Sequence record: NC_028847.1
Direction: 5' to 3' (one strand)
Source: Escherichia phage QL01
Length of the DNA: 64,000 bases
Shown: positions 7,487-38,977 of the stretch, in pieces
Layout: each line of letters opens with the position of its first letter
Numbering within the stretch: the first letter of the stretch is position 1
The notes under the pieces: generated by a model
Seen by the model: only the letters and a program-made list of their open reading frames with translations
What the model was told of the DNA's origin: nothing
The model's database searches: none
Program-made: the position numbers and the translations under genes

Positions 7487-7556
7487 AATAATTTCCTCAG
7501 TTTTAAAGTTATAATCCGTAGGACCATTATACTCTGGTCCCAAGAGTTTGTAAACT
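7487..7556 (-). promoter_or_regulatory. T4-type early promoter cassette (GTTTAC -35, TATAAT -10) with inverted repeat GGACCA/TGGTCC flanking -10
   Basis: Plus-strand gtaaac at 7550-7555 and attata at 7526-7531, i.e. GTTTAC-18 nt-TATAAT on the minus strand. Confidence 0.5.
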
Positions 7557-7755
7557 ATTTTTGACTCATTGCACCTTTCCAGCCTTCGTACATAGATGCA
7601 GCTGAAATTAATAAAGCGCCTGAACAACTTGAATATTTGTGGTTCCAAAACCAGTTCAGAAAAACTTCGTCATCAATACCTTGGGCTATCATATTTTCAA
7701 AGAACTGACGACGAGCTTCAGCAATTCGCTGTGATAATTTAGATTCAGGATTCAT
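7555..7755 (-). CDS. hypothetical protein
   Basis: 66-aa minus-strand ORF ending at the -35 of the downstream cassette. Confidence 0.35.
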   Translation of the reverse strand: MNPESKLSQRIAEARRQFFENMIAQGIDDEVFLNWFWNHKYSSCSGALLISAASMYEGWKGAMSQK

Positions 7756-7894
7756 TTAAATTTTCCAATTGCCATTTTCATCAATGAATTTAACCCAGTC
7801 ATTTACCGACCACTTGGTTGTATCGCCTTTTGGAGCAACATTTAAGGTATATAACCCCTGCTTAAAAAGCATTCGTTTGATATTCATATTTTCC

Positions 7895-8188
7895 TCAGCT
7901 ATAACGATAACATTCGTTTGATTTACGTTTTGCAACTCGATGAGAAGTATTGTAATCAGGTTCATCGTCATTGTAAACATCTTTTTTCAGCTTTCTCACT
8001 TCTTTACGAAGCTGGCGGTTCATTTCGTTCTTAACTTCAGAATCAACACCGCGCATACGTTTCCACTTGTCGGAACGGAAGATATTTTCTTCAACCAGTT
8101 CCTGACTTACGCCGTCCGGTGCTTTACGACGTCCGGAATAATAAAAATCTTTTACAGACAATTCTTTACGACGAATAGTTTTACCCAT
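7895..8188 (-). CDS. hypothetical protein, highly basic
   Basis: 97-aa minus-strand ORF rich in K/R. Confidence 0.4.
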   Translation of the reverse strand: MGKTIRRKELSVKDFYYSGRRKAPDGVSQELVEENIFRSDKWKRMRGVDSEVKNEMNRQLRKEVRKLKKDVYNDDEPDYNTSHRVAKRKSNECYRYS

Positions 8189-8190
8189 AG

Positions 8191-8445
8191 TTACCTCAGC
8201 AGTTTGTATCCAATAAGATTTTTAATGTATTGGACATCTTTGACATCCAAATCTAACTTAATATCTTTCAGGCGGTCGCACAGGGTCAAAAAGGTTACAT
8301 GTTTCCAATTCTTCACTGGGCAGCAATAAGTTTTCGGGCCGTTGGCGATTTCAATATTCTTATCAGTGACGGTGAGAAAAATCAGGCGCTCATCATCCAG
8401 ATTAAGGGTAATGATATTTTTCATTGAATGTAATTTCAGACTCAT
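8191..8445 (-). CDS. hypothetical protein
   Basis: 84-aa minus-strand ORF; 4-nt overlap with downstream ORF. Confidence 0.4.
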   Translation of the reverse strand: MSLKLHSMKNIITLNLDDERLIFLTVTDKNIEIANGPKTYCCPVKNWKHVTFLTLCDRLKDIKLDLDVKDVQYIKNLIGYKLLR

Positions 8446-8624
8446 GATTTGATTTCCTTAGCTATTGAACAAAACACGCTACGGTCACATACCATCATTG
8501 GAATATTTCTATGGTCCAGTACACGATACCATACGTCTGAATCGCTAGCAGCAATTACACGAACCGCACGCCCATTCACCAAATAATACTGGTCGGCTTT
8601 AATTTCTTTATCTTGGATAGTCAT
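8442..8624 (-). CDS. hypothetical protein
   Basis: 60-aa minus-strand ORF directly downstream of a promoter cassette. Confidence 0.4.
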   Translation of the reverse strand: MTIQDKEIKADQYYLVNGRAVRVIAASDSDVWYRVLDHRNIPMMVCDRSVFCSIAKEIKS

Positions 8625-8682
8625 AATGTTCTCCTCATGTGTTGATAGGATAGACTATAACACGTGAGGAGAGGAAGTAAAT
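8625..8682 (-). promoter_or_regulatory. early promoter cassette with SD-sequestering inverted repeat (CTCCTCACGTG / CACATGAGGAG)
   Basis: Minus strand: ATTTAC-17 nt-TATAGT, then IR arm containing GGAG SD 5 nt before ATG at 8624. Confidence 0.5.
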
Positions 8683-8683
8683 A

Positions 8684-9001
8684 CTAATCTTCAATTAAAT
8701 CTTGGTCATAACCAAGTTCAATCAAAAGCGATTTGAAGGCAGGAATATTTTCTATTTTCTTATTATCGACAAATATGACAGGATAGCGTATCGCTAAGCT
8801 CTTGAAGCCTGCACGTTTGGCCAATGATACTATAAGAGGCTTGTCGTATACTGCGCCTGACGGCGTCTGGTTAATCACAGGATAGAAAGTATGTGGGATA
8901 GAAAGGGAATTTAGGAGCGATAGAACAGCAATGCACCCTGGACAGCGCATGACTGTCTCAGGGATACCGTAAATCTCAATTTTAGTTAACTTTTGGTCCA
9001 C
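8684..9001 (-). CDS. glutaredoxin/NrdH-like thioredoxin-fold protein
   Basis: CPGC active-site motif near N-terminus, downstream cis-Pro-like YPVIFVD; 105 aa; location between 55 and 49 where T4 has nrdH. Confidence 0.5.
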   Translation of the reverse strand: MDQKLTKIEIYGIPETVMRCPGCIAVLSLLNSLSIPHTFYPVINQTPSGAVYDKPLIVSLAKRAGFKSLAIRYPVIFVDNKKIENIPAFKSLLIELGYDQDLIED

Positions 9002-9278
9002 AGGAAATAACTCCTTGGTAGTCCCAGGTTTTTAGAACTTCGTCCTCATTAGTTCCATACGGGACGTAAATCTGGATAAGGAACCCGGTGTCATCAAAAG
9101 AGAAGTAGACAGTCGGTTTAATACCATGAATCTCTGACAGAGCATAGATGTCCTTGAGGTCGTCTTCCTTACCTTTAAAGAATTCAGGGTTCAGGTCACA
9201 GTCATGGAAGTACCAATCATCACCAAACTTGTCCCAAGCGGTCCAATTCAAAGCTACATATTCTTCAAAACGTTTCAT
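8982..9278 (-). CDS. hypothetical protein
   Basis: 98-aa minus-strand ORF. Confidence 0.4.
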   Translation of the reverse strand: MKRFEEYVALNWTAWDKFGDDWYFHDCDLNPEFFKGKEDDLKDIYALSEIHGIKPTVYFSFDDTGFLIQIYVPYGTNEDEVLKTWDYQGVISCGPKVN

Positions 9279-9502
9279 TCTTTCACCTTCATCATTTTTG
9301 CAATAACACTATGAACAGCCTGGATTCGTTTGTCGAACTCGGACCCTTCAAGACCTTTTTCAGTACTCAGAGCACCAATAATCATGAACAGCAATCCAAA
9401 CGGAATAGCCAGGATTAAAAGGCATACGATAAACAGAACCAATGTTATATTAGCCAGGATATCAGAAACAGCATTACGAAATTTATTCATTAAAGAACCC
9501 AC
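9275..9502 (-). CDS. hypothetical small membrane protein
   Basis: 75 aa with one long hydrophobic segment (ITLVLFIVCLLILAIPFGLLFMIIGAL). Confidence 0.4.
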   Translation of the reverse strand: MGSLMNKFRNAVSDILANITLVLFIVCLLILAIPFGLLFMIIGALSTEKGLEGSEFDKRIQAVHSVIAKMMKVKE

Positions 9503-9611: not shown

Positions 9612-10085
9612 TCATTTAAGCGATTTCCTCAGTTGTTTTTTAAATGAATCGACCATTTGTTTCTTAGTGTCAGATTCATTATAAGTCATTCCATGTGAAA
9701 GCATTTCAGCAATCATTTCTTCCTTACCTAACCTGCTGAACTCTTTGGTTTTATCAGGAACGAAATTAGGATGGATATTGTTTTCAGTATAATCAGCTTT
9801 CAGATAGACCAGCAAATTCTCTAACCATTCGAGGTAGTCAACGTTTTGACCTTTAAGACCAGAACGGTTGAACTTATGCTTCATTTGTCCTTCTGCAGCA
9901 TTGCACAGATTACATAGTAAACCACGAACCTTACCGGCTTTTGGCCCGTTCAATTCATGGTCGTGGTCAAGGTGGTTACTTTGAACATCAGGGTTTAATT
10001 CACGTTTACAAATCAAACACTTACCACATTGTGCATCATAAAGTTTTTGTTTTTCTTCTTTGTATAATTTGCCGGTCAACAACAT
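9612..10085 (-). CDS. 49: endonuclease VII (Holliday junction resolvase) gp49
   Basis: 157 aa, same length as T4 endo VII; N-terminal MLLTGKLYKEEKQK and zinc-binding CxxC...HDHELNGPKAGKVRGLLCNLCN block. Confidence 0.92.
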   Translation of the reverse strand: MLLTGKLYKEEKQKLYDAQCGKCLICKRELNPDVQSNHLDHDHELNGPKAGKVRGLLCNLCNAAEGQMKHKFNRSGLKGQNVDYLEWLENLLVYLKADYTENNIHPNFVPDKTKEFSRLGKEEMIAEMLSHGMTYNESDTKKQMVDSFKKQLRKSLK

Positions 10086-10120
10086 AATAAACCCTTACCA
10101 TTATTAGATAAGGGTATTTA
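10086..10120 (-). promoter_or_regulatory. hairpin (ACCCTTA/TAAGGGT) immediately upstream of gene 49 start, preceded by TAATAAATA (late-promoter-like, one mismatch)
   Basis: Plus-strand aaacccttaccattattagataagggtatttatt; parallels known hairpin control of T4 gene 49. Confidence 0.3.
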
Positions 10121-10330: not shown

Positions 10331-10437
10331 TTAAATCATTGTTTGAAGGTTCATTATACTCTATTTCGGAATCGTTGTAAACGGGTTCCTCTGGCTCGGT
10401 AGGTTCTATCGTATCCCACCGAGCGACATACCATGGC

Positions 10438-11700: not shown

Positions 11701-12707
11701 TTCAGCAGCTCCAGAGCCTGTTCAAGACGGTCTAAACGATTGGTAGACTCTTCCCAAAGTTTCTTGGCAGCAGTATATTGGCCAGTCAGTTTTTTGTTGA
11801 TAGCAAGGGCGTCTTTATACGCTTTTTCCAAGGCAACGACTTCCGGTAACTTGGATTTAGTAATTGGTGTAGGGGCCATGATAGGGCTGTTCAAGTCGTT
11901 AATCAAATCTTCTAATGTAGCAGGCTCTTTATCAGTGTTCACAATTTCCTCACATTTTTCTTTGTAAATTTCAGCATCAGTTTTTGGAACGGTACATTTG
12001 ATTTCACGGACTGTTACTAAGACCTCATATCCTTTCCAGCCTAAGTGGTGTTTAACTTCTTGGGTCTCATATTTCTCTACGGTATCCATCAGAGCTAAAG
12101 CTTGTTCGATAGTATTCAAGGTATCGTAAGCAATATCTTGATACTTTACAACTTCCGCATCATCTTTAGGTTTCCTATTAGGTGACCAAATAACAGAAAT
12201 AATAGCTTTTCCTTTATAACTATTTGTTTTAATCATGCAATTAGCCATCGGGTGAATAGTACGACAATCACCGGAAACTATAGTTTTAGAGGCCGCTTTG
12301 AGAATTAATGCAGAGTTAGCCTTGAATTCGCTAACCCAACGTTGCGGAAATAAACTATTAGGGTCCATACCTTTAATTTTGATATAACCTTTTATGGTAT
12401 CACCAAACCATTTGTAGCTAACAACACGGTTGGAACCTGGATATTTCTCTTTACCGAACTCAGAAAGGATGTCCTTATTGACCAGGCGCGAAAGCAGTCG
12501 AGAACCTTTAAATGTTTTAATGATATCATGAATGCACAAACGGCCTGCAATCTTTTCGATTTCAGCTTTGAAACAGCGCGATAATGCATCATCAATTTGG
12601 TCGACCCATTTATTGATATTAGAAACTATTACCTCGTATGGGGTTAACGGAGGGGTGTTGGTAGTGATATACGTAGTAAAGGCATTGATGTATTCAGTAC
12701 GAGTCAT
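11697..12707 (-). CDS. hypothetical protein, C-terminal coiled coil
   Basis: 336-aa ORF with own upstream promoter cassette; C-terminal heptad-like K/E/L-rich segment. Confidence 0.5.
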   Translation of the reverse strand: MTRTEYINAFTTYITTNTPPLTPYEVIVSNINKWVDQIDDALSRCFKAEIEKIAGRLCIHDIIKTFKGSRLLSRLVNKDILSEFGKEKYPGSNRVVSYKWFGDTIKGYIKIKGMDPNSLFPQRWVSEFKANSALILKAASKTIVSGDCRTIHPMANCMIKTNSYKGKAIISVIWSPNRKPKDDAEVVKYQDIAYDTLNTIEQALALMDTVEKYETQEVKHHLGWKGYEVLVTVREIKCTVPKTDAEIYKEKCEEIVNTDKEPATLEDLINDLNSPIMAPTPITKSKLPEVVALEKAYKDALAINKKLTGQYTAAKKLWEESTNRLDRLEQALELLK

Positions 12708-12763
12708 GATATTCTCCTCAGTAGATTTAAAAGATTATACTCCATCCATCCTTGGATGTAAAC
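12708..12763 (-). promoter_or_regulatory. T4-type early promoter (GTTTAC -35, TATAAT -10)
   Basis: Plus-strand gtaaac at 12758-12763; minus strand GTTTAC-17 nt-(G)TATAAT then GAGGAG SD. Confidence 0.5.
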
Positions 12764-14760: not shown

Positions 14761-15284
14761 TATGCGAGAACCGTCTTTAAACGCTCTTCAAATTTCTGAA
14801 GCAGAGCTTGGCGTTCAGCTCGTTGTGATTTGTACTGCTCGATACGACCTGAAGTGAGGGCGTACTGTTCGTTTACTGATTCCCGCATGAATTCAGGAAT
14901 CTCTTTACAAGCTTTGATTTCGTCAAACTTATCAATAACAGCTTGTTGTTCAGCAATCAGATTATCGAAATAAGCGATATCAGATTTAACGTTTGCCAGG
15001 TCAGATTCGGTAGGCATTAAACGTTTGTTACGTTCAGCTTGATAAGCTTGATTGGTTTCACGACTCCAGTGAAGAGTACGTTTTTTGTTAGTGTTTTTAT
15101 AGAGCTCTACAATACCAACTGAATCGATGACAACAATCCAGTTCCAACGGCTTTTGTAAATCTCTCCTCCAGATACAGTAATCTCATTACCACAAGCAAC
15201 GTCGTTAAAGAACTTGCTTTGTTTTTCGGATTTGAAATTACCATTGTTATAATTGATGAGTGAAAAAATATCTTTAGCGTTCAT
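14760..15284 (-). CDS. hypothetical protein, C-terminal coiled coil
   Basis: 174-aa ORF downstream of a core-bearing promoter cassette. Confidence 0.45.
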   Translation of the reverse strand: MNAKDIFSLINYNNGNFKSEKQSKFFNDVACGNEITVSGGEIYKSRWNWIVVIDSVGIVELYKNTNKKRTLHWSRETNQAYQAERNKRLMPTESDLANVKSDIAYFDNLIAEQQAVIDKFDEIKACKEIPEFMRESVNEQYALTSGRIEQYKSQRAERQALLQKFEERLKTVLA

Positions 15285-15339
15285 GTTAACCTCCAGTAGT
15301 TGATAGGTCTATAGTATCATTTCTACTGGAGATGTAAAC
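15285..15339 (-). promoter_or_regulatory. PeSL-like early promoter cassette (core ttgataggtctatagtatca; IR CTCCAGTAG/CTACTGGAG sequestering SD)
   Basis: Core at 15300-15319; gtaaac at 15334-15339; arms at 15291-15299 and 15323-15331. Confidence 0.6.
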
Positions 15340-15692: not shown

Positions 15693-16673
15693 TTATTTCA
15701 GAAGTGTAACTTCAGCGATTTCGCTCCAGTCATTTTTATCGGTGGCAATGAAGTCCGCCAGATAAAGAGCTGTACGTAATGATACGTTACGAAGACGAGA
15801 TACATTAGCCTTCATCCATGCTAAAGCTTGGTAAGTCTCGGCATCAGTCAGACCACGGTTTTGCATCATATCAGTGGACAGGATAACGTCTTCAACACGA
15901 ACCATAATCTCTTCGTTCGAGTGAACTCCGAGGTCTAAGTAAACTGAACGCGATACTAAAGCCTGGAGGTGTGGAGCAAGTTTAGTTCCACGCTCTAATT
16001 CACGGTCAATATCAACGTTGGTGATGAACACGATGGTGCCTTCATACTCAAATTCTTTATCGATATTTTTATCATCAAGATAAGAACTTGAAGTGCTCCA
16101 GCACACCTTACGTTTTTCACCAGTATCCAATGCTGCTTTTAACAGGTTCAGGATATCCATATCAGAGAATACATCAACATCATCAATAAGAAGAACACTA
16201 TTAGGGCCGCGGTTATTCCAAAGCTGCTCGTAAAGACCGATTCCACTAATCTTTCCGTTGATTGATTTATATTCGATAGTTTCATTTTCGTGGGCATTCT
16301 GTAATGCTTTATCCAAAGAATATGTTTTACCAATACCTGCGGCACCAGAGATGATAAGGGAACGAATTTTACCATCGATGATTCCATTAGTCATCATGTT
16401 CATTACTTTAAAACGTTTGTTAATGCGATGTTTCATTTCTTCAGCGGATTCAGTAACAACTGCAGGAGCTTCAGCACCTTCCATTTCAACGTCACATTTG
16501 AACACCCATACACCACGTTCAACACCATCAATCTGTACAAATACCTTACCATCACCGAGGTGAGCTTCGGATTCATGAATTTTATTAGGGAACCAGGTTT
16601 TACCTGAACTCATGAACGTACCGGAGATTACATTACCGCGATAGATACCTTTGTTGATTTTGATAGTTAACAT
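15693..16673 (-). CDS. P-loop NTPase (Walker A GAAGIGKT, Walker B LLIDDVD), function unknown
   Basis: Start set at MLTIKINKG (internal Met of ORF 15693..16817) preceded by GGAGAA SD and promoter cassette. Confidence 0.55.
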   Translation of the reverse strand: MLTIKINKGIYRGNVISGTFMSSGKTWFPNKIHESEAHLGDGKVFVQIDGVERGVWVFKCDVEMEGAEAPAVVTESAEEMKHRINKRFKVMNMMTNGIIDGKIRSLIISGAAGIGKTYSLDKALQNAHENETIEYKSINGKISGIGLYEQLWNNRGPNSVLLIDDVDVFSDMDILNLLKAALDTGEKRKVCWSTSSSYLDDKNIDKEFEYEGTIVFITNVDIDRELERGTKLAPHLQALVSRSVYLDLGVHSNEEIMVRVEDVILSTDMMQNRGLTDAETYQALAWMKANVSRLRNVSLRTALYLADFIATDKNDWSEIAEVTLLK

Positions 16674-16739
16674 TATATTCTCCATTTCACTCAGTAGATT
16701 TGATAGGTCCATAATAACATGCTCTACGAAGGTGTAAAC
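16674..16739 (-). promoter_or_regulatory. PeSL-like early promoter cassette (core variant ttgataggtccataataaca)
   Basis: gtaaac 16734-16739; minus strand GTTTAC-17 nt-TATTAT; SD GGAGAA. Confidence 0.5.
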
Positions 16740-16754: not shown

Positions 16755-16780
16755 ACCCAAAAAAGGAACCCGAAGGTTCC
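16755..16780 (-). terminator. intrinsic terminator, GGAACC-UUCG-GGUUCC hairpin plus U-run
   Basis: Plus-strand aaaaaaggaacccgaaggttcc; perfect 6-bp stem, tetraloop, 6 U on minus transcript. Confidence 0.6.
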
Positions 16781-16968
16781 TAAATTGCGCTCCAAAAATT
16801 ATGGAAGCGTATATCATTTATAGCCCAGTTAACAAATTGTCTTGTCTGTTTAGGCGTAGGTTTGCACACGTACTTGATATTGACTCGACGTCCGGTTTCT
16901 TTACAGACAGCTTCAAGATACCAACGTCGGGTTTTATGGGGTCTTCCATATGATAAAAAGACCTTCAT
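16780..16968 (-). CDS. small basic protein (start MKVFLSYGRPHK; ORF track extends to 17022)
   Basis: 62 aa, K/R-rich; begins 7 nt after the stop of the upstream nucleotidyltransferase-like gene. Confidence 0.4.
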   Translation of the reverse strand: MKVFLSYGRPHKTRRWYLEAVCKETGRRVNIKYVCKPTPKQTRQFVNWAINDIRFHNFWSAI

Positions 16969-19528: not shown

Positions 19529-19765
19529 TCACCAGTATTTGTTGATAGTAGAAATTAATTCTTGGGCTTGGGTAGTCTTCAGTTTACATCCACAACCCTT
19601 TAATGTGTCTTTAAGGAGCCACGGTTCCTTGAGCTCGTCCTTTTCTAGACGAATTCTGTATCCTCGATAATCAGCGAAGATACTTCGGTCGTCGAATATC
19701 TTAATCTCAAGGATACGACCGTTGATTTCATATTCTAATGAAACCGTAGTACTTGTAAGTTTCAT
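19529..19765 (-). CDS. hypothetical protein
   Basis: 78-aa ORF directly downstream of a core-bearing promoter cassette. Confidence 0.4.
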   Translation of the reverse strand: MKLTSTTVSLEYEINGRILEIKIFDDRSIFADYRGYRIRLEKDELKEPWLLKDTLKGCGCKLKTTQAQELISTINKYW

Positions 19766-19822
19766 ACTGTTCTCCTCATTAGTTGATAGGTCTATAGTAT
19801 CATGTTCCTAGAGGATGTAAAC
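19766..19822 (-). promoter_or_regulatory. PeSL-like early promoter cassette (core ttgataggtctatagtatca)
   Basis: Core 19783-19802; gtaaac 19817-19822; minus strand GTTTAC-17 nt-TACTAT. Confidence 0.6.
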
Positions 19823-19830
19823 ACCTAAAC

Positions 19831-19857
19831 GAAAAAAGGTCCCACCGAAGTGAGACC
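19831..19857 (-). terminator. intrinsic terminator, GGUCUCAC-UUCG-GUGGGACC hairpin plus U6
   Basis: Plus-strand aaaaaaggtcccaccgaagtgagacc, directly after stop of gene 19863..20246. Confidence 0.6.
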
Positions 19858-19862
19858 TTTGA

Positions 19863-23213: not shown

Positions 23214-23672
23214 TTAAAGATAGATTACTTTCGTGCTGGTTTTACCTTCTAAACGTTTAGAGTTAACAAATGCCATACGACATTTAAGGGAATATCCTTT
23301 ATCAGGATGTTTACGGTCTACTGTCATACCTAGCCATAAGGTTTTATCGGTAATTTCGAGACGCAATGGACGATACACTTTACCAGGGACAATTTCGGAT
23401 TCTACATCAGGTAGAGGTTCCTGGATTAAAAATTCATGAATTTCTTTAACATGGTTATGGAGTTGCTTGAATAAAGCAAAAACGTATTTTTCGTCGATTT
23501 CACGTTGGATAGCACGGTCCAACAAGTGATTAGAGTACTTAATAAAGAAGGCTGGGACTCCGCTCTTGATGGCGGCTTTTTTGATGGACGTATTCAGTTC
23601 ACGGAATTCGGTTTCGAACTGACGACGTAATTTATTGCGGCGGATGAATACTTCTGAATTAATTTCTGACAT
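23214..23672 (-). CDS. regB: RegB endoribonuclease
   Basis: 152 aa; FIRRNKLRR...HLLDRAIQREIDE...RLEITD...LWLG resembles T4 RegB; location between tk and denV as in T4. Confidence 0.75.
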   Translation of the reverse strand: MSEINSEVFIRRNKLRRQFETEFRELNTSIKKAAIKSGVPAFFIKYSNHLLDRAIQREIDEKYVFALFKQLHNHVKEIHEFLIQEPLPDVESEIVPGKVYRPLRLEITDKTLWLGMTVDRKHPDKGYSLKCRMAFVNSKRLEGKTSTKVIYL

Positions 23673-23729
23673 TTTGTAATCTCCTGTAGTTGATAGGTCT
23701 ATAGTACCACGTCTACAGGAGATGTAAAC
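23673..23729 (-). promoter_or_regulatory. PeSL-like early promoter cassette upstream of regB (IR CTCCTGTAG/CTACAGGAG)
   Basis: Core variant 23690-23709; gtaaac 23724-23729; arms 23681-23689 and 23713-23721. Confidence 0.6.
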
Positions 23730-25409: not shown

Positions 25410-25709
25410 TTAGAAAGAACCAGAACCTCTAATTGTGTTCTGGCGACCTTTATTTTCTAATTCGGAGTGGTCGATTTCATATGCTTGTGCTACGCCAAAG
25501 GCCTTTTTAACTTTAGCTAAAGAACCTTTAGATGTAACAATATTAAAAGTATTACCTTTGGTAAAATCAACAAAATCGACTTGTACGCCCTGTTTACCGA
25601 GGCTTGCTACAATAGCATCAACATATTCTTGGTCTAAATTGCCTTGAACTCCAATTTGAAATGCTTTAGGAGCTTTGGCTTCTGTGATAAATTCTTGATA
25701 AGTTTTCAT
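25410..25709 (-). CDS. internal protein with capsid-targeting sequence (ipII-like size)
   Basis: Begins MKTYQEFITEAK, the T4 internal-protein capsid-targeting sequence; 99 aa. Confidence 0.7.
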   Translation of the reverse strand: MKTYQEFITEAKAPKAFQIGVQGNLDQEYVDAIVASLGKQGVQVDFVDFTKGNTFNIVTSKGSLAKVKKAFGVAQAYEIDHSELENKGRQNTIRGSGSF

Positions 25710-25752
25710 TGTTATTCCTTAAGTTGATAGAAGTATTCTATCACGGATTTAA
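25710..25752 (-). promoter_or_regulatory. perfect 8-bp inverted repeat TGATAGAA-gta-TTCTATCA between denV and internal-protein gene
   Basis: Plus-strand ttgatagaagtattctatca; resembles the promoter-cassette core; followed on minus strand by AAGGAA SD. Confidence 0.35.
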
Positions 25753-26169
25753 TTAAGCGTAAATAGCCTTGCCATAATGTTTGTACCAGGTAGGACGCTG
25801 TGCAATTTTTTCATCCAAACGGGTCTGAGATATAGCAATAGAAGCTTCGTGTGGAGTATAGTCACCACGGAATTCCTGAGGAATGTCACTAATGTCCTGG
25901 ACAGTAGTATCCTTGATATTAAAACCACGTTTTAAACATTCGGCTATAAGCTCAATTTGTCGCTTACGTAAAAATTCAAGCTTATCGTAAAAGAATGTAA
26001 CATGGCCTGTGCCAAGGATAAAAGTAGGACTGATTTTGAAATCACGGACACGTTTACCATTAGCAACATGCTTACGAACTGCACCGAAAACACGTGGTAA
26101 TTCACGATATTCAGCCATTAAGTGTTGGTCAGCCAATTCAGATACTAAGGTAAGGTTGATACGAGTCAT
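25753..26169 (-). CDS. denV: endonuclease V (pyrimidine-dimer DNA glycosylase) DenV
   Basis: 138 aa; [34 protein letters not shown], colinear with T4 endo V. Confidence 0.92.
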
Positions 26170-26225
26170 TTTTAATCTCCTGTAGTTGATAGGTCTATAG
26201 TATCATGACTACAGGAGATGTAAAC
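26170..26225 (-). promoter_or_regulatory. PeSL-like early promoter cassette upstream of denV (IR CTCCTGTAG/CTACAGGAG sequestering SD)
   Basis: Core 26186-26205; gtaaac 26220-26225; arms 26177-26185 and 26209-26217. Confidence 0.6.
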
Positions 26226-26249: not shown

Positions 26250-26846
26250 TTAATTACCACGGGCTGCATTAGCAACGGCGTAAGCGTACTGAATATTAGC
26301 GTCTTTAAACGTACCTTTAGAGGTATCTATCTCTGCCTTAAAGCCGCCTTTAACCATAACATCAGCAAATTCTTTACGGAAAGTCATTGCATCAAGACCT
26401 TTCCATGCGGATTTATGCTTGGCAAATTCAAGACCGGCGAAGTTAACTGCTTTAGCCAATTTATTATCAATAGTCCATTTACCTGCTTTAGGTACAAACA
26501 CCGGGCCTTTCTGTTTAGAGAACAGTTTTAAATTCCAGCGACGAAGGTCACCGTCAGCTTTAACAAAAGCTGCGTCCAAGTTACTAGCAACAACATCTTG
26601 GATATGGGCAAATTTAAGTCCATCAGCTTCAATATTTAGGTCGTTACGCCAGCGAAGTCCTTCCCAGGCGAAAGCTTTAAAATCAGAAGCTTTTGTAGCC
26701 AAGTACCGTTCAATAGGAGCTGTTTTAGCGTCAAAACCGTTTCCTGGGTTGTCAACGCCGTTTCCTTTGTAAGTCCACTCATCTTTATTAATGCCTTGGA
26801 CCTTTCCTACAGAAGCTTCGGCGATAAATTCTTTATACGTTTTCAT
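26250..26846 (-). CDS. internal protein with capsid-targeting sequence (ipIII-like size)
   Basis: Begins MKTYKEFIAEAS; 198 aa, Lys/Ala-rich. Confidence 0.7.
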   Translation of the reverse strand: MKTYKEFIAEASVGKVQGINKDEWTYKGNGVDNPGNGFDAKTAPIERYLATKASDFKAFAWEGLRWRNDLNIEADGLKFAHIQDVVASNLDAAFVKADGDLRRWNLKLFSKQKGPVFVPKAGKWTIDNKLAKAVNFAGLEFAKHKSAWKGLDAMTFRKEFADVMVKGGFKAEIDTSKGTFKDANIQYAYAVANAARGN

Positions 26847-26928
26847 ACGGGTTCCTTAAAGGAAAATATTTTAATTGGTCTGTTCAAGTAACTGTAGATA
26901 TACTATCACAATTCTAGGAGATGTAAAC
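26847..26928 (-). promoter_or_regulatory. T4-type early promoter cassette (GTTTAC-17 nt-TAGTAT) upstream of internal-protein gene
   Basis: gtaaac 26923-26928; partial core ctgtagatatactatcaca. Confidence 0.5.
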
Positions 26929-29807: not shown

Positions 29808-30020
29808 TTACTTTTTGTTGAAAAAGTACATTTTACCTTTAGGGGATAAGGATACACGAAGTGCGTTACCAATACCAACTGAACATTTAACCAGGTCAGC
29901 AGATTTCAATTCACCAAATGCTTGACGAAGGTCACCGTCACGAGTGTTAACCATCAGGCATTTAGCACCAGCTGCACGAACTTCGTTTAACATGTTGATT
30001 GCTTGGTTAGAAAGTTTCAT
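29808..30020 (-). CDS. hypothetical small protein (start MKLSNQ)
   Basis: Internal start preceded by GGAGAA SD and promoter cassette. Confidence 0.4.
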   Translation of the reverse strand: MKLSNQAINMLNEVRAAGAKCLMVNTRDGDLRQAFGELKSADLVKCSVGIGNALRVSLSPKGKMYFFNKK

Positions 30021-30086
30021 TTTATTCTCCATTTCACTCTGTTGTTTTGATAGGTCTATAGTATCACACCTATAGACCTTGTACAC
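30021..30086 (-). promoter_or_regulatory. PeSL-like early promoter cassette (core; IR AGGTCTATAG/CTATAGACCT flanking -10)
   Basis: Core 30046-30065; -35 variant GTGTAC (plus gtacac 30081-30086). Confidence 0.55.
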
Positions 30087-31077: not shown

Positions 31078-31317
31078 TTAAATTTCAGCGACGTAATCGT
31101 TATGCAATTCCCACATATCATCAGAATTATTCTTAATGATAGGAATTATCTCATTAGAGATTTCTTCAGCATAAGGGTCATTGATACAGTGGGCATCTTC
31201 AAAACGAACACCGTAATCAGACTTCTTATAAGAGAAGCCATAAATCTTTTTAAACTTGGCGCGAGTAATGCGTACCGGTTCATTAGACTTATCGGACATC
31301 GGAGCGTAATACCACAT
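31078..31317 (-). CDS. hypothetical protein
   Basis: 79-aa ORF with upstream early promoter. Confidence 0.4.
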   Translation of the reverse strand: MWYYAPMSDKSNEPVRITRAKFKKIYGFSYKKSDYGVRFEDAHCINDPYAEEISNEIIPIIKNNSDDMWELHNDYVAEI

Positions 31318-31370
31318 ATGTTCTCCTCATGTTTGTGTAGGGTAATAGTAACATGATTTTCTAGAGTTGT
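31318..31370 (-). promoter_or_regulatory. T4-type early promoter (TGTACA -35-like, TGtTACTAT extended -10)
   Basis: Minus strand ...ATGTACAACTCTAGAAAATCATGTTACTAT...GAGGAGAACATATG. Confidence 0.4.
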
Positions 31371-31690
31371 ACATCACTTCTGCAATATTCTAAAAATAAT
31401 TTATCATTGTCTACTGTATCCCAACGACGCCAAGACGGGTTCCAGACCAAAGCGTTGTCACCACAATCATTGAGCTTAAAATGGTCGTAGTACATAGCTA
31501 TGTGTCTAGTCTCGTCACCAGAGAACCCCAGTATAGGCTCACCGCGGGTGTGATACATATGATGGTGCATTGAGAGGTCGCATTTGTAAAACATCTCACG
31601 TTTACCACGAACGAACAAGAAGGCCTGTCCATTCATATAGAATTCTTTATTTGTTTTCAAAAGATATTTGAATACTGAATCTTTATGCAT
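31361..31690 (-). CDS. hypothetical His-rich protein (start MHKDSVF)
   Basis: Internal start with AGGAGG SD; HHHMYH cluster. Confidence 0.4.
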   Translation of the reverse strand: MHKDSVFKYLLKTNKEFYMNGQAFLFVRGKREMFYKCDLSMHHHMYHTRGEPILGFSGDETRHIAMYYDHFKLNDCGDNALVWNPSWRRWDTVDNDKLFLEYCRSDVQL

Positions 31691-32166: not shown

Positions 32167-32177
32167 TTTTTATCACC

Positions 32178-32390
32178 TTAGCAAGACATAGAGGATGTAA
32201 ACCAGAAACCTTCACCTTCCGGAATACCGTAGTCATCACGGACCCATTCGTAATCATCATATTCCGGGTTCTTTGGAGAAATGTATTCTCCACGACCAGA
32301 AACACGGAACTCTTCACCCGTTTCGTCAGCCACAGACTGGCCTTTACGTACTAATTCACGGATTTGGTTTTCAATTTCATCAATAGTCAT
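32178..32390 (-). CDS. small acidic protein, paralog family member 2 (C-terminal W-F-T-S-S-M-S-C)
   Basis: 70 aa; ends GFWFTSSMSC; stop embedded in TAAGG SD of next gene. Confidence 0.5.
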   Translation of the reverse strand: MTIDEIENQIRELVRKGQSVADETGEEFRVSGRGEYISPKNPEYDDYEWVRDDYGIPEGEGFWFTSSMSC

Positions 32391-33836: not shown

Positions 33837-34430
33837 TTACTTAAGTGAATTAATGTAGTCTTCGATATCAGCAGAAGTCGTATCCATTCCAACTTGCGGG
33901 CCTTTAAACGTTTCTACGCGCAGTAGGGTGTCTTCAATATCAATCTTGGTCAGTGCAGCGATTTCAACAACATCGTCGGCAGTAGCAATACCAAGGGCAG
34001 CCATATTACGAGTTTCACGGATGTACTCGAGCTTAACAGCCAGTTCCTGACGAGAGTCATCAAGTTCCTTAACCTTCAGTTTAATTTCATTACGCATTTC
34101 GATATAATCATCGGCTTTCTTCCGAAGCTGAGTAGCTGTACGACGATAAAGGAGACCGAGTTTAGCATGTACCTGGACATCAGAGCCTTCGGCAATCAGT
34201 TTACGAATTTCACGTTCTTTAGAAGCAGCGAGCTGGTCCTTTTCATTAGCCAAAGCACGAATACGTTTTTCTTCATTCACAGACTTAACATGAGCAGTCT
34301 GGAGTTCAGTGATTTTATCAATCAGAGTAGAAGCAGCTTTGGTGTATTGGTCTTCGATTGACAGGTTCTGAGTCATTGCGGTGCCCAGTTTAGAACGAAT
34401 GAATTCAACGATTTTCTTTAAAGTGTTCAT
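33837..34430 (-). CDS. hypothetical coiled-coil protein
   Basis: 197 aa, almost entirely heptad-like. Confidence 0.45.
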
Positions 34431-34503
34431 AGTATTTCCTTCAGTTGGTTAACGTTTTGTAATCCATGAGGACATTATACCCTGTCCTCTGAGGTTTGTA
34501 AAC
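34431..34503 (-). promoter_or_regulatory. T4-type early promoter (GTTTAC-17 nt-TATAAT) with IR GAGGACA/TGTCCTC flanking -10
   Basis: gtaaac 34498-34503; arms 34468-34474 and 34483-34489. Confidence 0.5.
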
Positions 34504-34506: not shown

Positions 34507-34905
34507 TTATTTCATTTTTGCGAGGCAGATTTCATTGGCTTCCCATTGAGCTTGCTTAATAATAGCTTTGGATACAGGAACCCTTTGGCCATAAGTTTTT
34601 GATGTTGAGAGAACAATATGTTTGTTTGCTTCATTATGCCAGCCCCATGATTTTTCGCCATGAGTACCTTTAACTACAGCTGACACCTCAACAGAGCAAC
34701 CACCATCAGAAATCTTGGTTTCGACAACCCATTCATTTCTCTCGACAGCTTCAATTTCCAATCTAGTTTTTTCTTCATACATCGCGGCCCAATCAGTTTT
34801 TGCCAAGTTGAAAGCAAGAGCTTTCTCTAATTCTTTGGCATATTTTTGTTGTTCGGGTGTTAATGAATTATACAACTCTTGCATTTCTTTATCTTCGATA
34901 TTCAT
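34507..34905 (-). CDS. hypothetical protein
   Basis: 132-aa ORF. Confidence 0.45.
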   Translation of the reverse strand: MNIEDKEMQELYNSLTPEQQKYAKELEKALAFNLAKTDWAAMYEEKTRLEIEAVERNEWVVETKISDGGCSVEVSAVVKGTHGEKSWGWHNEANKHIVLSTSKTYGQRVPVSKAIIKQAQWEANEICLAKMK

Positions 34906-34961
34906 TATGTTCTCCTCAAATTATGGGGCTCATAATATCTTAATAATGAGCCCATGTAAAC
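34906..34961 (-). promoter_or_regulatory. T4-type early promoter (GTTTAC, TATTAT) with IR flanking -10
   Basis: gtaaac 34956-34961; near-palindrome atggggctcat / atgagcccat. Confidence 0.45.
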
Positions 34962-34964: not shown

Positions 34965-35228
34965 TTATTTCATATTATTGAAATAATTTTCTGCATCAAA
35001 ATCACTACCATGGTAAACTTTGGTAGACGATTTGGCGTAACCTTCAGCTGAGAACATATTAATCACAACTTTAATTGTATACCACTGTCCATCTTCATTA
35101 CCCATTACTGCATAGGTTTCATACACCGGGTGTTCAGGACCGATAACCTTAATATCGTTAACTGTGGCACCAAATTCTTCCGGAACACATTTCATAAAGA
35201 AATTAAACACTTCACCATAATTATCCAT
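34965..35228 (-). CDS. hypothetical protein (start MDNYGEV)
   Basis: ATG start with AAGGAG SD; ORF-track start is a GTG 5 codons upstream. Confidence 0.4.
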   Translation of the reverse strand: MDNYGEVFNFFMKCVPEEFGATVNDIKVIGPEHPVYETYAVMGNEDGQWYTIKVVINMFSAEGYAKSSTKVYHGSDFDAENYFNNMK

Positions 35229-35292
35229 TTTACTCTCCTTCACTCTGTTGTTTTGATAGGTCTATAGTATCATGTTCTACGAAAGAGTAAAC
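35229..35292 (-). promoter_or_regulatory. PeSL-like early promoter cassette (core ttgataggtctatagtatca)
   Basis: Core 35253-35272; gtaaac 35287-35292. Confidence 0.6.
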
Positions 35293-35315: not shown

Positions 35316-35345
35316 CAAAAAAGGCCCAACCTTTCGGAAGGGCCT
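35316..35345 (-). terminator. intrinsic terminator (GGCCC...GNRA-loop...GGGCC plus U6)
   Basis: Plus-strand aaaaaaggcccaacctttcggaagggcct after gene end 35350. Confidence 0.55.
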
Positions 35346-36438: not shown

Positions 36439-36446
36439 TATTTATA
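36439..36446 (-). promoter_or_regulatory. late promoter TATAAATA upstream of internal-protein gene
   Basis: Plus-strand tatttata 36439-36446, ~27 nt upstream of ATG 36412. Confidence 0.5.
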
Positions 36447-36447
36447 C

Positions 36448-36478
36448 AAAAAAAGCCCAACCTTTCGGAAGGGCCTTT
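36448..36478 (-). terminator. intrinsic terminator closing the tRNA/ncRNA transcription unit
   Basis: Plus-strand aaaaaaagcccaacctttcggaagggcct; near-duplicate of hairpin at 35316-35345; U7 on minus transcript. Confidence 0.55.
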
Positions 36479-36857
36479 AACCTAGGGTAACCTTGTCGGG
36501 GTTCCACCTGCTAGGCAAGTGTTTGTACGAAACGCCGGGATTCGAACCCGGTTATTAAGTAGTTGACGCCACTCAATATTTTTAAAAGGCCATATCTCGA
36601 CCATATCCGAACGTTCCGTCAAAAACGCTACTCGGCTTACGGCAAAGATATTTCCTCGAATCGATAATTCGGTGCGCCGTTTCTGCTGTGATGTAAGGGG
36701 ACGTTAACAGATCGTAAAGATTTGTTAATGCCAGTCCTTACTCAGGGAACATCAGTCCGACGACTTACCGGTAGCGACCCGGTTTCTTGTTTGTTGCGCC
36801 GGTGAATGCTGGTAATCAGTCTTCATACGACGGCTTGACTATATAATAGTCTTCATT
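36479..36857 (-). ncRNA. structured non-coding region downstream of tRNA-Arg; contains tRNA-like T-arm CCGGG-TTCGAAT-CCCGG (36535-36551); possible counterpart of T4 small stable RNAs
   Basis: No ORF on minus strand; multiple stem-loops (e.g. GACTAT-TAT-ATAGTC); T-arm consensus without a complete cloverleaf. Confidence 0.35.
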
Positions 36858-36932
36858 TGGTATCCCGCCCTGGGATCGAACCAGGACCGCAAACTTAGAA
36901 GGATCGTATGCTATCCATTACACCAGCGGGAC
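36858..36932 (-). tRNA. tRNA-Arg (anticodon TCT), CCA encoded
   Basis: Minus strand GTCCCGC...anticodon loop CTTCTAA...T-arm CCTGG-TTCGATC-CCAGG...GCGGGAT-A-CCA; 7-bp acceptor stem with one G-U. Confidence 0.8.
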
Positions 36933-36937
36933 GTAGT

Positions 36938-37014
36938 TGGTGACCCAGACCAGATTTGAACTGGTAACCTTTCCCTTATGAGGGGACTGCTGCTAACCAT
37001 TGAGCTACAGGGCC
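36938..37014 (-). tRNA. tRNA with CAT anticodon (Met or lysidine-type Ile), CCA encoded
   Basis: Minus strand GGCCCTG TAGCTCAATGG...anticodon loop CTCATAA...T-arm ACCAG-TTCAAAT-CTGGT...CTGGGTC-A-CCA; one U-U mismatch in acceptor stem. Confidence 0.7.
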
Positions 37015-37292: not shown

Positions 37293-37460
37293 CTCAAATA
37301 AAATTAAGTAAAGTAAGTTTGATTAATAGACCTTGTCTATTATGAAAGGTTCTTTGAGGGAAGAACCTTTGGTAATAGAGGGTATTAATGATAGAGTAAT
37401 AATAACACATTACTCTTAAAGCATATTACTATTTTTAGGAATAGTCTGGTCAAATTTGAT
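37293..37460 (-). promoter_or_regulatory. 168-nt non-coding spacer with three inverted repeats (10-bp AAAGGTTCTT/AAGAACCTTT; 8-bp AGAGTAAT/ATTACTCT; TAGAC/GTCTA)
   Basis: No ORF; perfect IRs at ~37355-37380 and ~37395-37420. Confidence 0.3.
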
Positions 37461-37751
37461 TCATTGTGGCCACATATTAATGTAATCAAGTTTAATAGAA
37501 GCAATCTTCAAAGGATTTTTAAAGATGTCGTATTCGACCAACCCGTTTTCAGTTGCGGTGTAGAAAGTAAAGTTAACAGAATTATAACGGCGACCATTAA
37601 CTTTTAGTTTAACGTCGCTTGAACTACGACCAATATTAACCTGTTGGACATCAAGCACAGCACCTTTGCCAAAGTTGCGAATCAGTAGCTCTGCTGCAAC
37701 CTGGTCTGAATTATAGCCATTCTCTGGATTAGTAACCTTAACGTATAGCAT
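37461..37751 (-). CDS. hypothetical protein
   Basis: 96-aa ORF. Confidence 0.4.
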   Translation of the reverse strand: MLYVKVTNPENGYNSDQVAAELLIRNFGKGAVLDVQQVNIGRSSSDVKLKVNGRRYNSVNFTFYTATENGLVEYDIFKNPLKIASIKLDYINMWPQ

Positions 37752-38159
37752 TTAACCCTCGTCTACAATAGTATGGGTATTAGCATTAACAATCTGCCAC
37801 CAGTCACAGTCAAAACGATTAGAACCGTAACGAGGCTTTTTCTCATTTTCGTTAATAATATCACGTAGTTCGTCTTCAGAAAATGCTTTAGCGATTAAAT
37901 CGGTATAGCCGCCACGTGGATAATAGTTATCACCTGCGAACAGAAGGAAATTTACTTTACCAGAAGGAACATATGCTTCCTTAGGATACTTGTTTCCTGC
38001 TTGGTCTACCACTTCAATATAACGGTAAGGAATATCGGTACTTTCAACCCATTGCCAAGCTGCAGCAGGGGATTCAAAAGCATCTACACCTAAACGGTTA
38101 TCTTCATCTTTAGACGGATTATTTTCATAATCCGCATATACATAATATTCAATGTTCAT
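37752..38159 (-). CDS. hypothetical protein
   Basis: 135-aa ORF, abuts upstream ORF. Confidence 0.4.
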   Translation of the reverse strand: MNIEYYVYADYENNPSKDEDNRLGVDAFESPAAAWQWVESTDIPYRYIEVVDQAGNKYPKEAYVPSGKVNFLLFAGDNYYPRGGYTDLIAKAFSEDELRDIINENEKKPRYGSNRFDCDWWQIVNANTHTIVDEG

Positions 38160-38356
38160 TATTCACCTTTAGAGATTTTATCCATAACGAAAGAAATTGA
38201 ACCAATTAAGAATGCCACTACTAAAGAGATTATATTCTCGGAAGTTGAAAGCATATCGAGCATGAATCCTGCAAACATACTAAAGCCAAAAGCAGTAACA
38301 GCGGCCAGTGCAGTAACATTTCTAATTAATTCACAACGTTTCATTTTATTCTCCAA
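38159..38356 (-). CDS. hypothetical small membrane protein
   Basis: 65 aa with two hydrophobic segments; preceded by promoter cassette. Confidence 0.4.
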   Translation of the reverse strand: MENKMKRCELIRNVTALAAVTAFGFSMFAGFMLDMLSTSENIISLVVAFLIGSISFVMDKISKGE

Positions 38357-38410
38357 TCACTCATTTGTTTTGATAGGGCTATAGTACCATCACTAAAGCC
38401 CGTTGTAAAC
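38357..38410 (-). promoter_or_regulatory. PeSL-like early promoter cassette (core variant ttgatagggctatagtacca with compensating partner arm)
   Basis: Core 38370-38389; gtaaac 38405-38410. Confidence 0.55.
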
Positions 38411-38412
38411 AA

Positions 38413-38685
38413 TTATTTTAAATAAATTGCATATTTTTTATAACCAGCCGTCTCGTGGCGCAGCCCTTTTTCATTAGCAAAACGTTCAATATTGTTAATT
38501 TGATTCTGGTCGAGTTCTGAAGTATCAAATACAAAAAAGTTTCGCTTATTGCCTAAAGTTACGTGATTAGTCAAATCGATGTTATAGAGATGATTTATAT
38601 TATCAATCATGGTCTTAACAGATTTGTTAATTTTTACTTCTTCATTAAGAATAGATTCAGCGATAAATTCTTGGTATGATTTCAT
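38413..38685 (-). CDS. internal protein with capsid-targeting sequence
   Basis: Begins MKSYQEFIAESI; 90 aa. Confidence 0.6.
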   Translation of the reverse strand: MKSYQEFIAESILNEEVKINKSVKTMIDNINHLYNIDLTNHVTLGNKRNFFVFDTSELDQNQINNIERFANEKGLRHETAGYKKYAIYLK

Positions 38686-38686
38686 T

Positions 38687-38911
38687 TTATTCAGCGCCAG
38701 CGGCTTTCAAAAGTTTTTTAAGATTGGCTATGCCGCCAGCAGAAAACGTGACCTTGCCACCTTTTTCATTGATAGAGCCAGTCAATTTAGCAAGCTTATC
38801 ACTAGGGACTTTTTTAAAATCAGCCAGTGTGCCATCAAAGGTTTTTGTAACAATTGGCAGTTCATCTTCATGTCTTTTAGCTTCGGTGATAAATTCTTGA
38901 TAAGTTTTCAT
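38687..38911 (-). CDS. internal protein with capsid-targeting sequence
   Basis: Begins MKTYQEFITEAK; 74 aa. Confidence 0.6.
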   Translation of the reverse strand: MKTYQEFITEAKRHEDELPIVTKTFDGTLADFKKVPSDKLAKLTGSINEKGGKVTFSAGGIANLKKLLKAAGAE

Positions 38912-38977
38912 TTTGATTTCCGTTTGGTTAGTTTGTTTTGATAGGTCTATAGTATCATGCCTATAGACCTTGTAAAC
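38912..38977 (-). promoter_or_regulatory. PeSL-like early promoter cassette (core; IR AGGTCTATAG/CTATAGACCT)
   Basis: Core 38938-38957; gtaaac 38972-38977. Confidence 0.6.

Follow-up and report, generated by a model that had tools for sequence, protein, structure and literature searches.

The early region of Escherichia phage QL01, as contained in a 64,000-nucleotide stretch of its genome (NC_028847.1; hereafter "the window", meaning this whole stretch), is punctuated by 17 intergenic cassettes that are most plausibly sigma-70-dependent early promoters of a T4-like phage of the genus Dhakavirus, organised as promoter-early stem-loop (PeSL) cassettes (probability roughly 0.85). They carry all the sequence-level features that define a T4 early promoter and a PeSL, with the terminator feature being doubtful here. 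The element is of a known type, found in a lineage in which it had previously not been catalogued, and its less-described part is an arm complementary to the Shine-Dalgarno (SD) sequence that lies within the promoter spacer. Earlier descriptions of PeSLs concern RB49/phi1, T4/PST, and KVP40/nt-1, and JS98 has been mentioned only in passing, as carrying "PeSL-like sequences" near gene 43 (PMC2839356, PMC4122927).

Distribution of the core motif

An initial annotation of the window, made from the letters alone, had reported a conserved core of 20 base pairs (bp) at nine intergenic sites upstream of minus-strand genes. A search for this core (TTGATAGGTCTATAGTATCA), allowing up to three mismatches and using dinucleotide shuffles as control, returned nine matches, all with the core on the plus strand, whereas the shuffles gave a mean of 0.02 and a maximum of one. 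Six copies are exact (15300, 19783, 26186, 30047, 35253, and 38938) and three imperfect (23690, one mismatch; 38370, two; 16700, three). All nine sites had been placed to the base, with the exception of the copy at 30047, which had been put at 30046. The core is not equally common inside genes: with gene starts as called, no copy falls in coding sequence. Seven looser sites of the same architecture had also been proposed. They do exist, with their -36 bases at 7555, 8682, 12763, 26928, 31374, 34503, and 34961, but the numbers given for them approximate the start codons, the promoters lying 40-80 nucleotides (nt) further upstream. At two of them the -35 element is weaker (ATTTAC at 8682, ATGTAC at 31374). 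One additional intergenic cassette, with its -36 base at 25764, brings the total to 17. All 17 are located within 7.5-39 kb, and the structural-gene part of the window (43-64 kb) contains none.

Pattern searches tailored to T4 agree with these counts. The string GTTTAC-N17-TANNAT is matched eight times against 0.36 expected, and a strict filter demanding GT[TG]TAC, 16-18 nt, TANNNT, an SD sequence, and ATG retains 14 sites, every one of them on the minus strand (shuffles, 0.34). The window itself belongs to a T4-like phage of the JS98 group (Dhakavirus), sharing 99% identity with Escherichia phage LQ5 and 93-97% with IME08, Bp7, WG01, and further Dhakavirus phages. Its genes follow the T4 order (46/47, 55, nrdH, 49, nrdC, tk, vs, regB, denV, e, tRNAs, 57, and then genes 1, 3, 2, and 4, followed by baseplate genes on the other strand); the cassettes therefore sit in the classical early hyperplastic part of the genome, oriented the way early transcription runs. 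Extending the search to a related genome, as the initial annotation had suggested, gave the same picture: the complete LQ5 genome contains 18 copies with up to three mismatches, exclusively on the early strand and each accompanied by a -35 element and an SD-ATG pair, roughly a dozen or more of them being exact, and the 33 promoters that pass the strict filter all lie on the early strand. A search of IMG/VR located the exact 20-mer in 50 stretches, nearly all of which derive from a handful of genomes of about 170 kb; this concentration indicates that the exact form of the core is characteristic of Dhakavirus.

Promoter architecture and homology to T4

Alignment of the nine core sites bears out the reading of each site, on the minus strand, as GTTTAC, a 17-nt spacer, TACTAT with a TG extension, an SD sequence, and ATG. 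The elements follow one another in the order A-rich stretch, (G)TTTAC, 17-nt spacer, TGnTAYTAT, AGACCT, ATCAA, SD, and ATG, with few deviations (an 18-nt spacer at 38370, GTGTAC at 30047, TATTAT at 16700, and GGAA instead of GGAG as the SD sequence at 38938). The distance between the -10 element and ATG amounts to 26-37 nt at the core sites, and the predicted 5′ untranslated regions of all 17 cassettes measure 19-47 nt. The 22 nt upstream of position -36 are 74% A+T, compared with 61% for the window, and feature A-runs at most sites, as expected for an UP region. Among the 17 promoters, T-12, A-11, and T-7 are invariant, and T-15 and G-14 occur in 13 and 15, respectively. Conservation in at least 12 promoters is seen at each position of the TG at -15/-14, of the -10 hexamer, and of CCT at -3 to -1, as well as at A+1 and A+5; T+2, C+3, and A+4 are more weakly conserved (10-11 of 17). 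As read from these positions, the 20-bp core is the T4 early-promoter consensus from -15 to +5, comprising the extended -10 element, the discriminator, and the putative start site. Early promoters of T4 are known to combine UP, -35, TGn, and -10 elements with additional conserved regions (PMC2988021).

A scan of T4 revealed the same architecture at the orthologous positions, namely at nrdC.8, nrdC.10, the rI.-1/mobD.5 junction, vs.3/regB, denV, and ipII, and further at ipIII, e.6, e.8, trna.4, and ipI. The T4 denV promoter (GTTTACATCTCCTGTAGGTATGATACTATAGACCTATCAACTACAGGAGA) holds the exact 20-mer together with essentially the same spacer as the denV promoter of the window, the two differing from -36 to the SD sequence at only three spacer positions. 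The T4-like gene region, the shared promoter positions, and the identical 20-mer at denV uphold the assignment to T4-type early promoters. The other T4 promoters carry close variants of the core such as TGGTACTATACAACTATCAA, the commonest, and TGATACTATTACCCTATCAA, the exact 20-mer being present once within the 40 kb examined. At nrdC.8, nrdC.10, mobD.5, and e.8, positions -6 to -1 read ACAAC[T/C] in T4 and [A/G]GACCT in the window. Since such lineage-specific changes are common to the copies within one genome, they hint at concerted evolution of the core, although paralogues are overall no more alike than orthologues (0.77 each). By analogy with T4, RNA polymerase containing host sigma-70 would recognise the A/T-rich UP region, GTTTAC (-36 to -31), TGn, and TACTAT, and transcription would start at the first A of ATCAA, about 7 nt past the -10 element. 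The T4 records AF158101 and NC_000866 contain no promoter features, and the literature, searched for T4 start sites mapped across the genome, yielded nothing usable.

Stem-loops embedded in the promoters

In every cassette, the spacer separating the -35 and -10 elements can base-pair with sequence that follows the -10 element. Two classes can be distinguished by the position of the 3′ arm. In class A (9 of 17), the 3′ arm contains the SD sequence (GGAG) and ends 3-6 nt before ATG, as in the regB and denV cassettes (ATCTCCTGTAG ... CTACAGGAGAT; spacer arm CTCCTGTAG). In class B (8 of 17), the 3′ arm abuts the -10 element, as exemplified by AGGTCTATAG ... CTATAGACCT. In the cassette with its -36 base at 31374, the spacer sequence TCATGTT pairs with AACATGA adjoining the SD sequence. 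RNAduplex energies between each spacer and its own downstream sequence sum to -200 kcal/mol for the 17 cassettes. When partners were permuted, the sum was -143.6 +/- 10.6 kcal/mol, with none of 5000 permutations reaching the observed value, and shuffled spacers gave -102 +/- 8. The complementarity was replicated in T4 (n=15, z = -6.5) and in those LQ5 promoters that lie beyond the window (n=19, z = -4.4). When single cassettes were folded, minimum free energies (MFE) ranged from -13 to -21 kcal/mol, and the lowest z-score was -6.2.

Covariation points in the same direction. Within the ATCTCC..TAG family, an 11-bp helix shows the compensatory pairs TG/CA, AG/CT, and AT/AT, is 97% paired, and displays covariation matched by none of 500 shuffles, its changes representing only about three independent lineages. 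Likewise, the arms of the trna.4 promoter differ among the window, LQ5, WG01, and T4 yet remain complementary in all four. Since transcription is predicted to start downstream of the 5′ arm, the promoter's own transcript would lack this arm, and the hairpin could form only in readthrough RNA or in single-stranded DNA. The location of the 5′ arm between -35 and -10 is the commonest stem-loop placement in the PeSLs of RB49/phi1 (PMC2839356). A third placement, absent from this window, is common in Dhakavirus relatives: here, pairing takes place between the -35 element and the spacer end (TGTTTA ... TAAACA), with a spacer module (T/A)TCTGCTTTAAACA, e.g., at 20690-20740 of WG01 and around 5854 of LQ5. 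Taken together, the placements seen in the window and its relatives are those reported for the RB49/phi1 PeSLs (PMC2839356).

Exchange of genes at the cassettes

Seven Dhakavirus relatives (LQ5, E33, PSD9, WG01, IME341, IME08, and Bp7) were aligned to the window. The region is mosaic among relatives, and no more than seven records each cover at least 80% of it. Cassettes contain 13 of the 57 breakpoint clusters while accounting for 4.4% of the span (P ~ 1e-6 relative to a uniform distribution). The nrdC.10/nrdC.11 junction is one example. One promoter is located there in the window, IME08, and Bp7, whereas E33 and IME341 possess an extra 84-amino-acid (aa) open reading frame (ORF) between two promoters, and WG01 an unrelated extra ORF between two nearly identical promoter copies of about 45 bp that constitute direct repeats; the PSD9 annotation lists an ORF sized like that of WG01. 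The single promoter of the window is a chimera of the two promoters flanking the extra ORF in E33 and IME341, its 5′ half corresponding to the upstream and its 3′ half to the downstream copy of E33. Between denV and e, the window and its seven relatives show five different arrangements, whose junctions fall at the stretch GTTTACATCTCCT common to two cassettes, those of denV and of the ipIII-like gene. In the window and WG01, a 132-aa ORF and the ipIII-like gene accompany denV; the ORF is missing from LQ5 and PSD9, the ipIII-like gene from E33, and both from Bp7, the common stretch being the deletion junction in E33 and Bp7. IME08 and IME341 contain ipII and a different denV promoter.

Further junctions of this kind were found elsewhere in the region. 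The upstream edge of the regB cassette is an indel boundary in WG01 and Bp7, and the trna.4 cassette is a recombination junction in WG01 and E33. At e.8, IME08 has another spacer module joined to the same downstream half, and the WG01 Ip7 promoter combines a trna.4-type spacer with an ipI-type downstream half, its arms no longer pairing. Among all copies retrieved, the exact core precedes 34 different N-termini; one gene is found with several spacer modules and one module with several genes. The comparison of cassette-flanked modules between genomes proposed in the initial annotation thus uncovered insertions, deletions, and replacements with junctions inside cassettes as well as chimeric promoters, and these, together with a spacer stem-loop in each cassette, sustain its description of the cassettes as PeSL-like. 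Many of the cassettes have 13-45 bp of identity in common, in one orientation, and, as the relatives show, thus serve as sites of homologous exchange, which inserts, deletes, or swaps the small genes between them, each gene bringing its own promoter.

Several points weigh against this interpretation, and in part they favour an alternative in which the cassettes function solely as strong early promoters, the core being conserved only for its near-optimal fit to the polymerase and viable indels having to fall between genes in any case. Conservation of the core could reflect selection for promoter strength alone, the consensus of T4 early promoters extends beyond the hexamers (PMC2988021), and core identity is the same between paralogues within the window as between orthologues of the window and T4 (0.77 each). 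Breakpoints are not significantly enriched at cassettes (7 of 17) relative to other gene junctions (22 of 80; Fisher P = 0.20), so that the case for recombination rests on the anatomy of the junctions and not on their rate. Promoter activity and start site are, moreover, predicted from T4 homology and consensus. A generic sigma-70 scan found no enrichment over shuffles (67 versus 54 +/- 7; 57 versus 55 +/- 8), and hence only the T4-specific pattern is informative for this promoter class. Finally, no T-run follows the promoter-embedded hairpins, so that they differ in appearance from effective terminators of the sort demonstrated for the stem-loop of one RB49 PeSL.

What speaks for PeSL-type cassettes over promoters of this plain kind, which we consider an unlikely explanation, is the detail of the junctions. 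Several of them lie inside the cassette itself and not merely between genes, chimeric promoters derive their 5′ and 3′ halves from different copies, the ORFs inserted in WG01 are flanked by direct promoter repeats of about 45 bp, hairpin arms are mismatched exactly in the chimeras, and lineage-specific core changes are shared at the four orthologous positions mentioned above. It is very improbable that the core serves as an operator, bound by a protein of the phage or the host, e.g., in early-promoter shut-off: its 5-bp inverted repeat (TGATA-N9-TATCA) can be read from the sequence and shut-off has been reported as not fully understood (PMC2988021, PMC3014915), but the common T4 variant and 8 of the 17 promoters of the window lack the dyad, for which reason this reading was rejected, the conserved positions are known contact regions of RNA polymerase (TGn, -10, discriminator, and start site), and no candidate binding protein was identified. 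A mobile element resembling a miniature inverted-repeat transposable element was likewise rejected, as terminal inverted repeats and target duplications are absent and orientation and position before ATG are fixed.

Possible functions of the embedded hairpins

For the PeSL-type cassettes favoured here, two roles of the hairpins may be considered. According to the first, hairpins of class A serve as insulators of translation: the spacer would act as an anti-SD sequence in readthrough RNA and block translation of the downstream gene, which in about half of the cassettes would then be translated only from the transcript of its own promoter. The geometry of class A, in which the GGAG-containing 3′ arm stops just short of ATG, fits this proposal, as do MFE values of -18 to -21 kcal/mol and compensatory changes that include G-U wobbles on the sense strand. 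For class A, the SD sequence is predicted to be unpaired with a probability of 0.14 in readthrough RNA, compared with 0.35 when transcription begins at the cassette's own promoter (n=9, P = 0.004), a significance that depended on restriction to the SD core, the average over a 17-nt window giving only a trend (P = 0.066). The four strongest cases have readthrough values close to 0, and a fifth has 0.11. Folding is slightly more favourable for the sense than for the antisense strand (P = 0.02), a small difference that lends weak support to a role at the RNA level.

A precedent is provided by the T4 late promoters of e, soc, 49, and I-TevI (PMC3014915), in which the promoter is likewise contained in the 5′ arm and the 3′ arm covers the SD sequence; according to prediction, RNA arriving from upstream would be untranslatable, and promoter-proximal transcripts would be free. 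Those promoters differ in being gp55-dependent and in separating early from late expression, whereas both transcript types would be early here, and the effect is a predicted one. There is no obvious reason for silencing an early gene on early readthrough RNA. In class B, the accessibility of the SD sequence is unaffected (0.40 versus 0.44), and as these hairpins leave it free, insulation cannot be the general role of the hairpins. With the whole case built on prediction, insulation by class A hairpins is a tentative proposal, and its extension to a general insulation device of early promoters should be regarded as equally speculative. No description of an anti-SD arm within an early-promoter spacer was found in the literature searched.

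The second role, corresponding to the original reading of PeSLs, is that of terminators or attenuators of incoming transcription. In the case of one RB49 stem-loop, the drop in lacZ expression equalled that caused by rrnB T1 (PMC2839356), and the position of the 5′ arm upstream of the start would confine the hairpin to incoming transcripts. The sequences flanking the 3′ arms, however, are ATCAAAAC or UUAAAAAUG and contain no U-run in any of the cassettes, stems of 7-11 bp with loops of 8-25 nt make weak candidates for intrinsic termination, the embedded hairpins are absent from the terminator scan listing, and separate canonical terminators stand upstream of three cassettes. Lacking U-runs and not appearing in the scan, the hairpins offer no sequence support for a terminator role of the RB49 type, and attenuation seems a rather doubtful function, less probable than insulation.

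Relation to known PeSL systems

The QL01 cassettes share several properties with the PeSLs of RB49 and phi1 (PMC2839356). In both systems, repeated intergenic cassettes combine an A/T-rich region, sigma-70-type -35 and -10 elements, a stem-loop located between these elements or over -10, an SD sequence, and the ATG of a small gene; copies are concentrated in hyperplastic early regions, and close relatives differ by indels with junctions in the cassettes and chimeric cassettes at the junctions. RB49 employs TTGACA/TATAAT and stems composed of a G-run and a C-run that were shown to terminate, whereas GTTTAC/TACTAT and mixed stems are present in QL01, about half of whose cassettes use the SD sequence itself as the 3′ arm. 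Mini-circles and promoter activity were demonstrated experimentally for RB49/phi1; the QL01 cassettes are known from sequence. The PeSLs of T4 and Yersinia phage PST (PMC4122927) and the T4 early promoters (PMC2988021) resemble the QL01 cassettes in featuring TTTACW-N17-TAYWAT, TGn, and an UP element in the same gene neighbourhoods, and the hairpins between spacer and downstream sequence are significant in T4 as well. The stem-loops described for T4/PST, however, sit just upstream of the promoter (PMC4122927) and not across -10 or the SD sequence, and the exact 20-mer, present once in the 40 kb of T4 examined, is found many times in LQ5 and, to judge from the IMG/VR matches, in other Dhakavirus genomes.

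Gene context of the cassettes

All 17 cassettes are intergenic and end in the SD sequence and ATG of the downstream gene (Table 1). The initial annotation had placed many of them directly after an intrinsic terminator or a stop codon. Stop codons are indeed close by, 0-57 nt before the -36 base or, in two cases, overlapping it by 12-14 nt, but an intrinsic terminator is found at only 3 of 17 (those with -36 bases at 16739, 19822, and 35292), and a generic terminator scan of the region gave no enrichment over shuffles. The claim that the region is cut into short, individually promoted units needs a similar correction, as promoters do stand between genes but the units run from one to about 13 genes and are not all short. 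As to the cargo, described as largely uncharacterised, six of the nine genes behind core cassettes have no Pfam match, while RegB and DenV are recognised by Pfam. A search against Rfam detected no RNA family in the cassettes, its only matches being the two tRNAs.

Table 1. Promoter cassettes, embedded hairpins, and associated features of the QL01 window (for cassettes, the upper coordinate is the -36 base)
Feature	Coordinates	Strand	Remarks
Early promoter cassette, no full core	7484..7555	-	GTTTAC..TATAAT; predicted to drive 109-aa ORF 7157-7486
Class B hairpin of 7555 cassette		-	Arms GGGACCAG/ATGGTCC, across -10
Early promoter cassette	8622..8682	-	ATTTAC..TATAGT, then CCTATCAAC
Class A hairpin of 8682 cassette		-	CTCCTCACGTGT/ACACATGAGGAG, sequesters SD (predicted); MFE -21.1, z -5.7
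Promoter-like site, inside small ORF (49.1-like)	10353..10382	-	GTTTAC-N17-TATAAT; same place in T4 (47452)
Early promoter cassette, 5′ of nrdC.4-like gene	12705..12763	-	GTTTAC..TATAAT; spacer/SD pairing weak
Core cassette, 5′ of nrdC.8 homologue	15282..15339	-	Exact 20-mer 15300-15319; class A ATCTCCAGTAG/CTACTGGAGGT
Core cassette, 5′ of nrdC.10	16671..16739	-	3 mismatches, 16700-16719
Intrinsic terminator hairpin	16764..16781	-	GGAACCTTCGGGTTCC + T-run; directly upstream of 16739 cassette
Core cassette, 5′ of 78-aa ORF 19529-19765	19763..19822	-	Exact 19783-19802; position of T4 promoter 58780
Intrinsic terminator	19835..19860	-	11-bp stem + T-run; directly upstream of 19822 cassette
Core cassette, 5′ of regB	23670..23729	-	1 mismatch, 23690-23709; class A ATCTCCTGTAG/CTACAGGAGAT
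Extra cassette	25707..25764	-	TATTTACG..TAGAAT, then TTCTATCAAC; dyad GATAGAA-TAC-TTCTATC over -10
Core cassette, 5′ of denV	26167..26225	-	Exact 26186-26205; class A hairpin, MFE -20.7, z -6.2
Early promoter cassette, 5′ of ipIII-like gene 26250-26846	26844..26928	-	GTTTACATCTCCTAGAATTGTGATAGTAT
Core cassette, 5′ of 70-aa ORF	30018..30086	-	Exact 30047-30066; class B AGGTCTATAG/CTATAGACCT across -10
Early promoter cassette	31315..31374	-	ATGTAC..TACTAT, then TACCCTACAC
Degraded half-cassette	32175..32202	-	GTTTACATCCTCTATG; -35 + 19822-type spacer, without usable -10, directly before ATG
Early promoter cassette, 5′ of e.6 homologue	34428..34503	-	GTTTAC..TATAAT; class B GAGGACA/TGTCCTC
Early promoter cassette	34903..34961	-	GTTTAC..TATTAT; class B GGGCTCAT/ATGAGCCC
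Core cassette, 5′ of e.8 homologue	35226..35292	-	Exact 35253-35272
Terminator-like hairpin	35317..35344	-	GGCCCTTCCGAAAGGTTGGGCC + T6; upstream of 35292 cassette; by eye, absent from terminator scan listing
Core cassette, 5′ of trna.4 homologue	38342..38410	-	2 mismatches, 38370-38389; class B GGGCT.TAG/CTATAGCCC
Core cassette, 5′ of internal-protein-like gene (MKTYQEFI...)	38909..38977	-	Exact 38938-38957
Class B hairpin of 38977 cassette		-	AGGTCTATAG/CTATAGACCT; MFE -16.8, z -5.7

Two of the listed sites are not counted among the 17 cassettes. Judged by its sequence, the site at 10382 possibly acts from within its ORF as an early promoter of the pin-like gene, and the half-cassette at 32202 resembles the degraded half-PeSLs described for T4/PST. 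The gene start of nrdC.10 differs among annotations. Its homologue (15693-16673, minus strand) was called at 326 aa, as in the E33 and WG01 annotations (325 aa in T4), and IME08 and Bp7 annotate a longer gene running across the 16739 promoter; the start assigned in these two phages is probably too far upstream, the true one following the promoter. The nrdC.10 protein gave sub-threshold Pfam matches to AAA/STAND-type NTPase domains and to a helix-turn-helix domain. The sequence MKTYQEF/MKTYKEF begins three genes that follow cassettes (38687-38911, 25410-25709, and 26250-26846, minus strand), the second being the internal-protein-like gene (MKTYQEF...) that the 25764 cassette would drive. The motif also occurs in genes of relatives annotated as internal head proteins. 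Each of the three genes has its own promoter, and the set varies among close relatives.

Other variable loci in the window

Three further loci vary among the relatives. Between gene 47 and a-gt.2, a 205-aa ORF (4409-5026, minus strand) has a weak GIY-YIG match, which at 18.4 bits stays under the cut-off. E33, PSD9, WG01, IME341, and Bp7 contain nothing corresponding to the sequence between about 4422 and 5016-5049; LQ5 realigns at 4533 and IME08 aligns throughout. The locus therefore looks like an insertion of a seg-type homing endonuclease. The region of gene 49 (endonuclease VII; 9631-10100, ORF 9612-10085) has no counterpart at this place in LQ5, E33, PSD9, and Bp7. At this position, E33, PSD9, and LQ5 contain about 1.07 kb of unrelated sequence, annotated in E33 and PSD9 as an ORF of 1074 nt, and the breakpoints are not at an early-promoter cassette. 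In the region 36444-37014 (minus strand), the window carries tRNA-Arg and tRNA-Met, and IME08 carries Arg, Asn, and Met. The segment 36444-36793 is 90% identical to the T4 rnaC/rnaD region (species 1 and 2 RNA) and has no Rfam match, and 35.9-37.3 kb is highly variable among relatives.

Implications

Phages of the JS98 group have been used in phage therapy work. For the annotation of their genomes, the cassettes provide reliable early-promoter calls and corrected gene starts, as illustrated by nrdC.10. The established picture of T4 early transcription is left unchanged by these findings. With respect to evolution, they confirm independently, for a fourth T4-like lineage, that accessory-gene exchange takes place at promoter cassettes, with chimeric junctions that are unusually clear. 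With respect to regulation, the anti-SD arm in the spacer offers a hypothesis for how the expression of a gene may be shielded from readthrough of neighbouring units. If insulation of this kind were true, each cassette would be a self-contained unit of transcription and translation, which would let genes shuffle between contexts with their expression unchanged.

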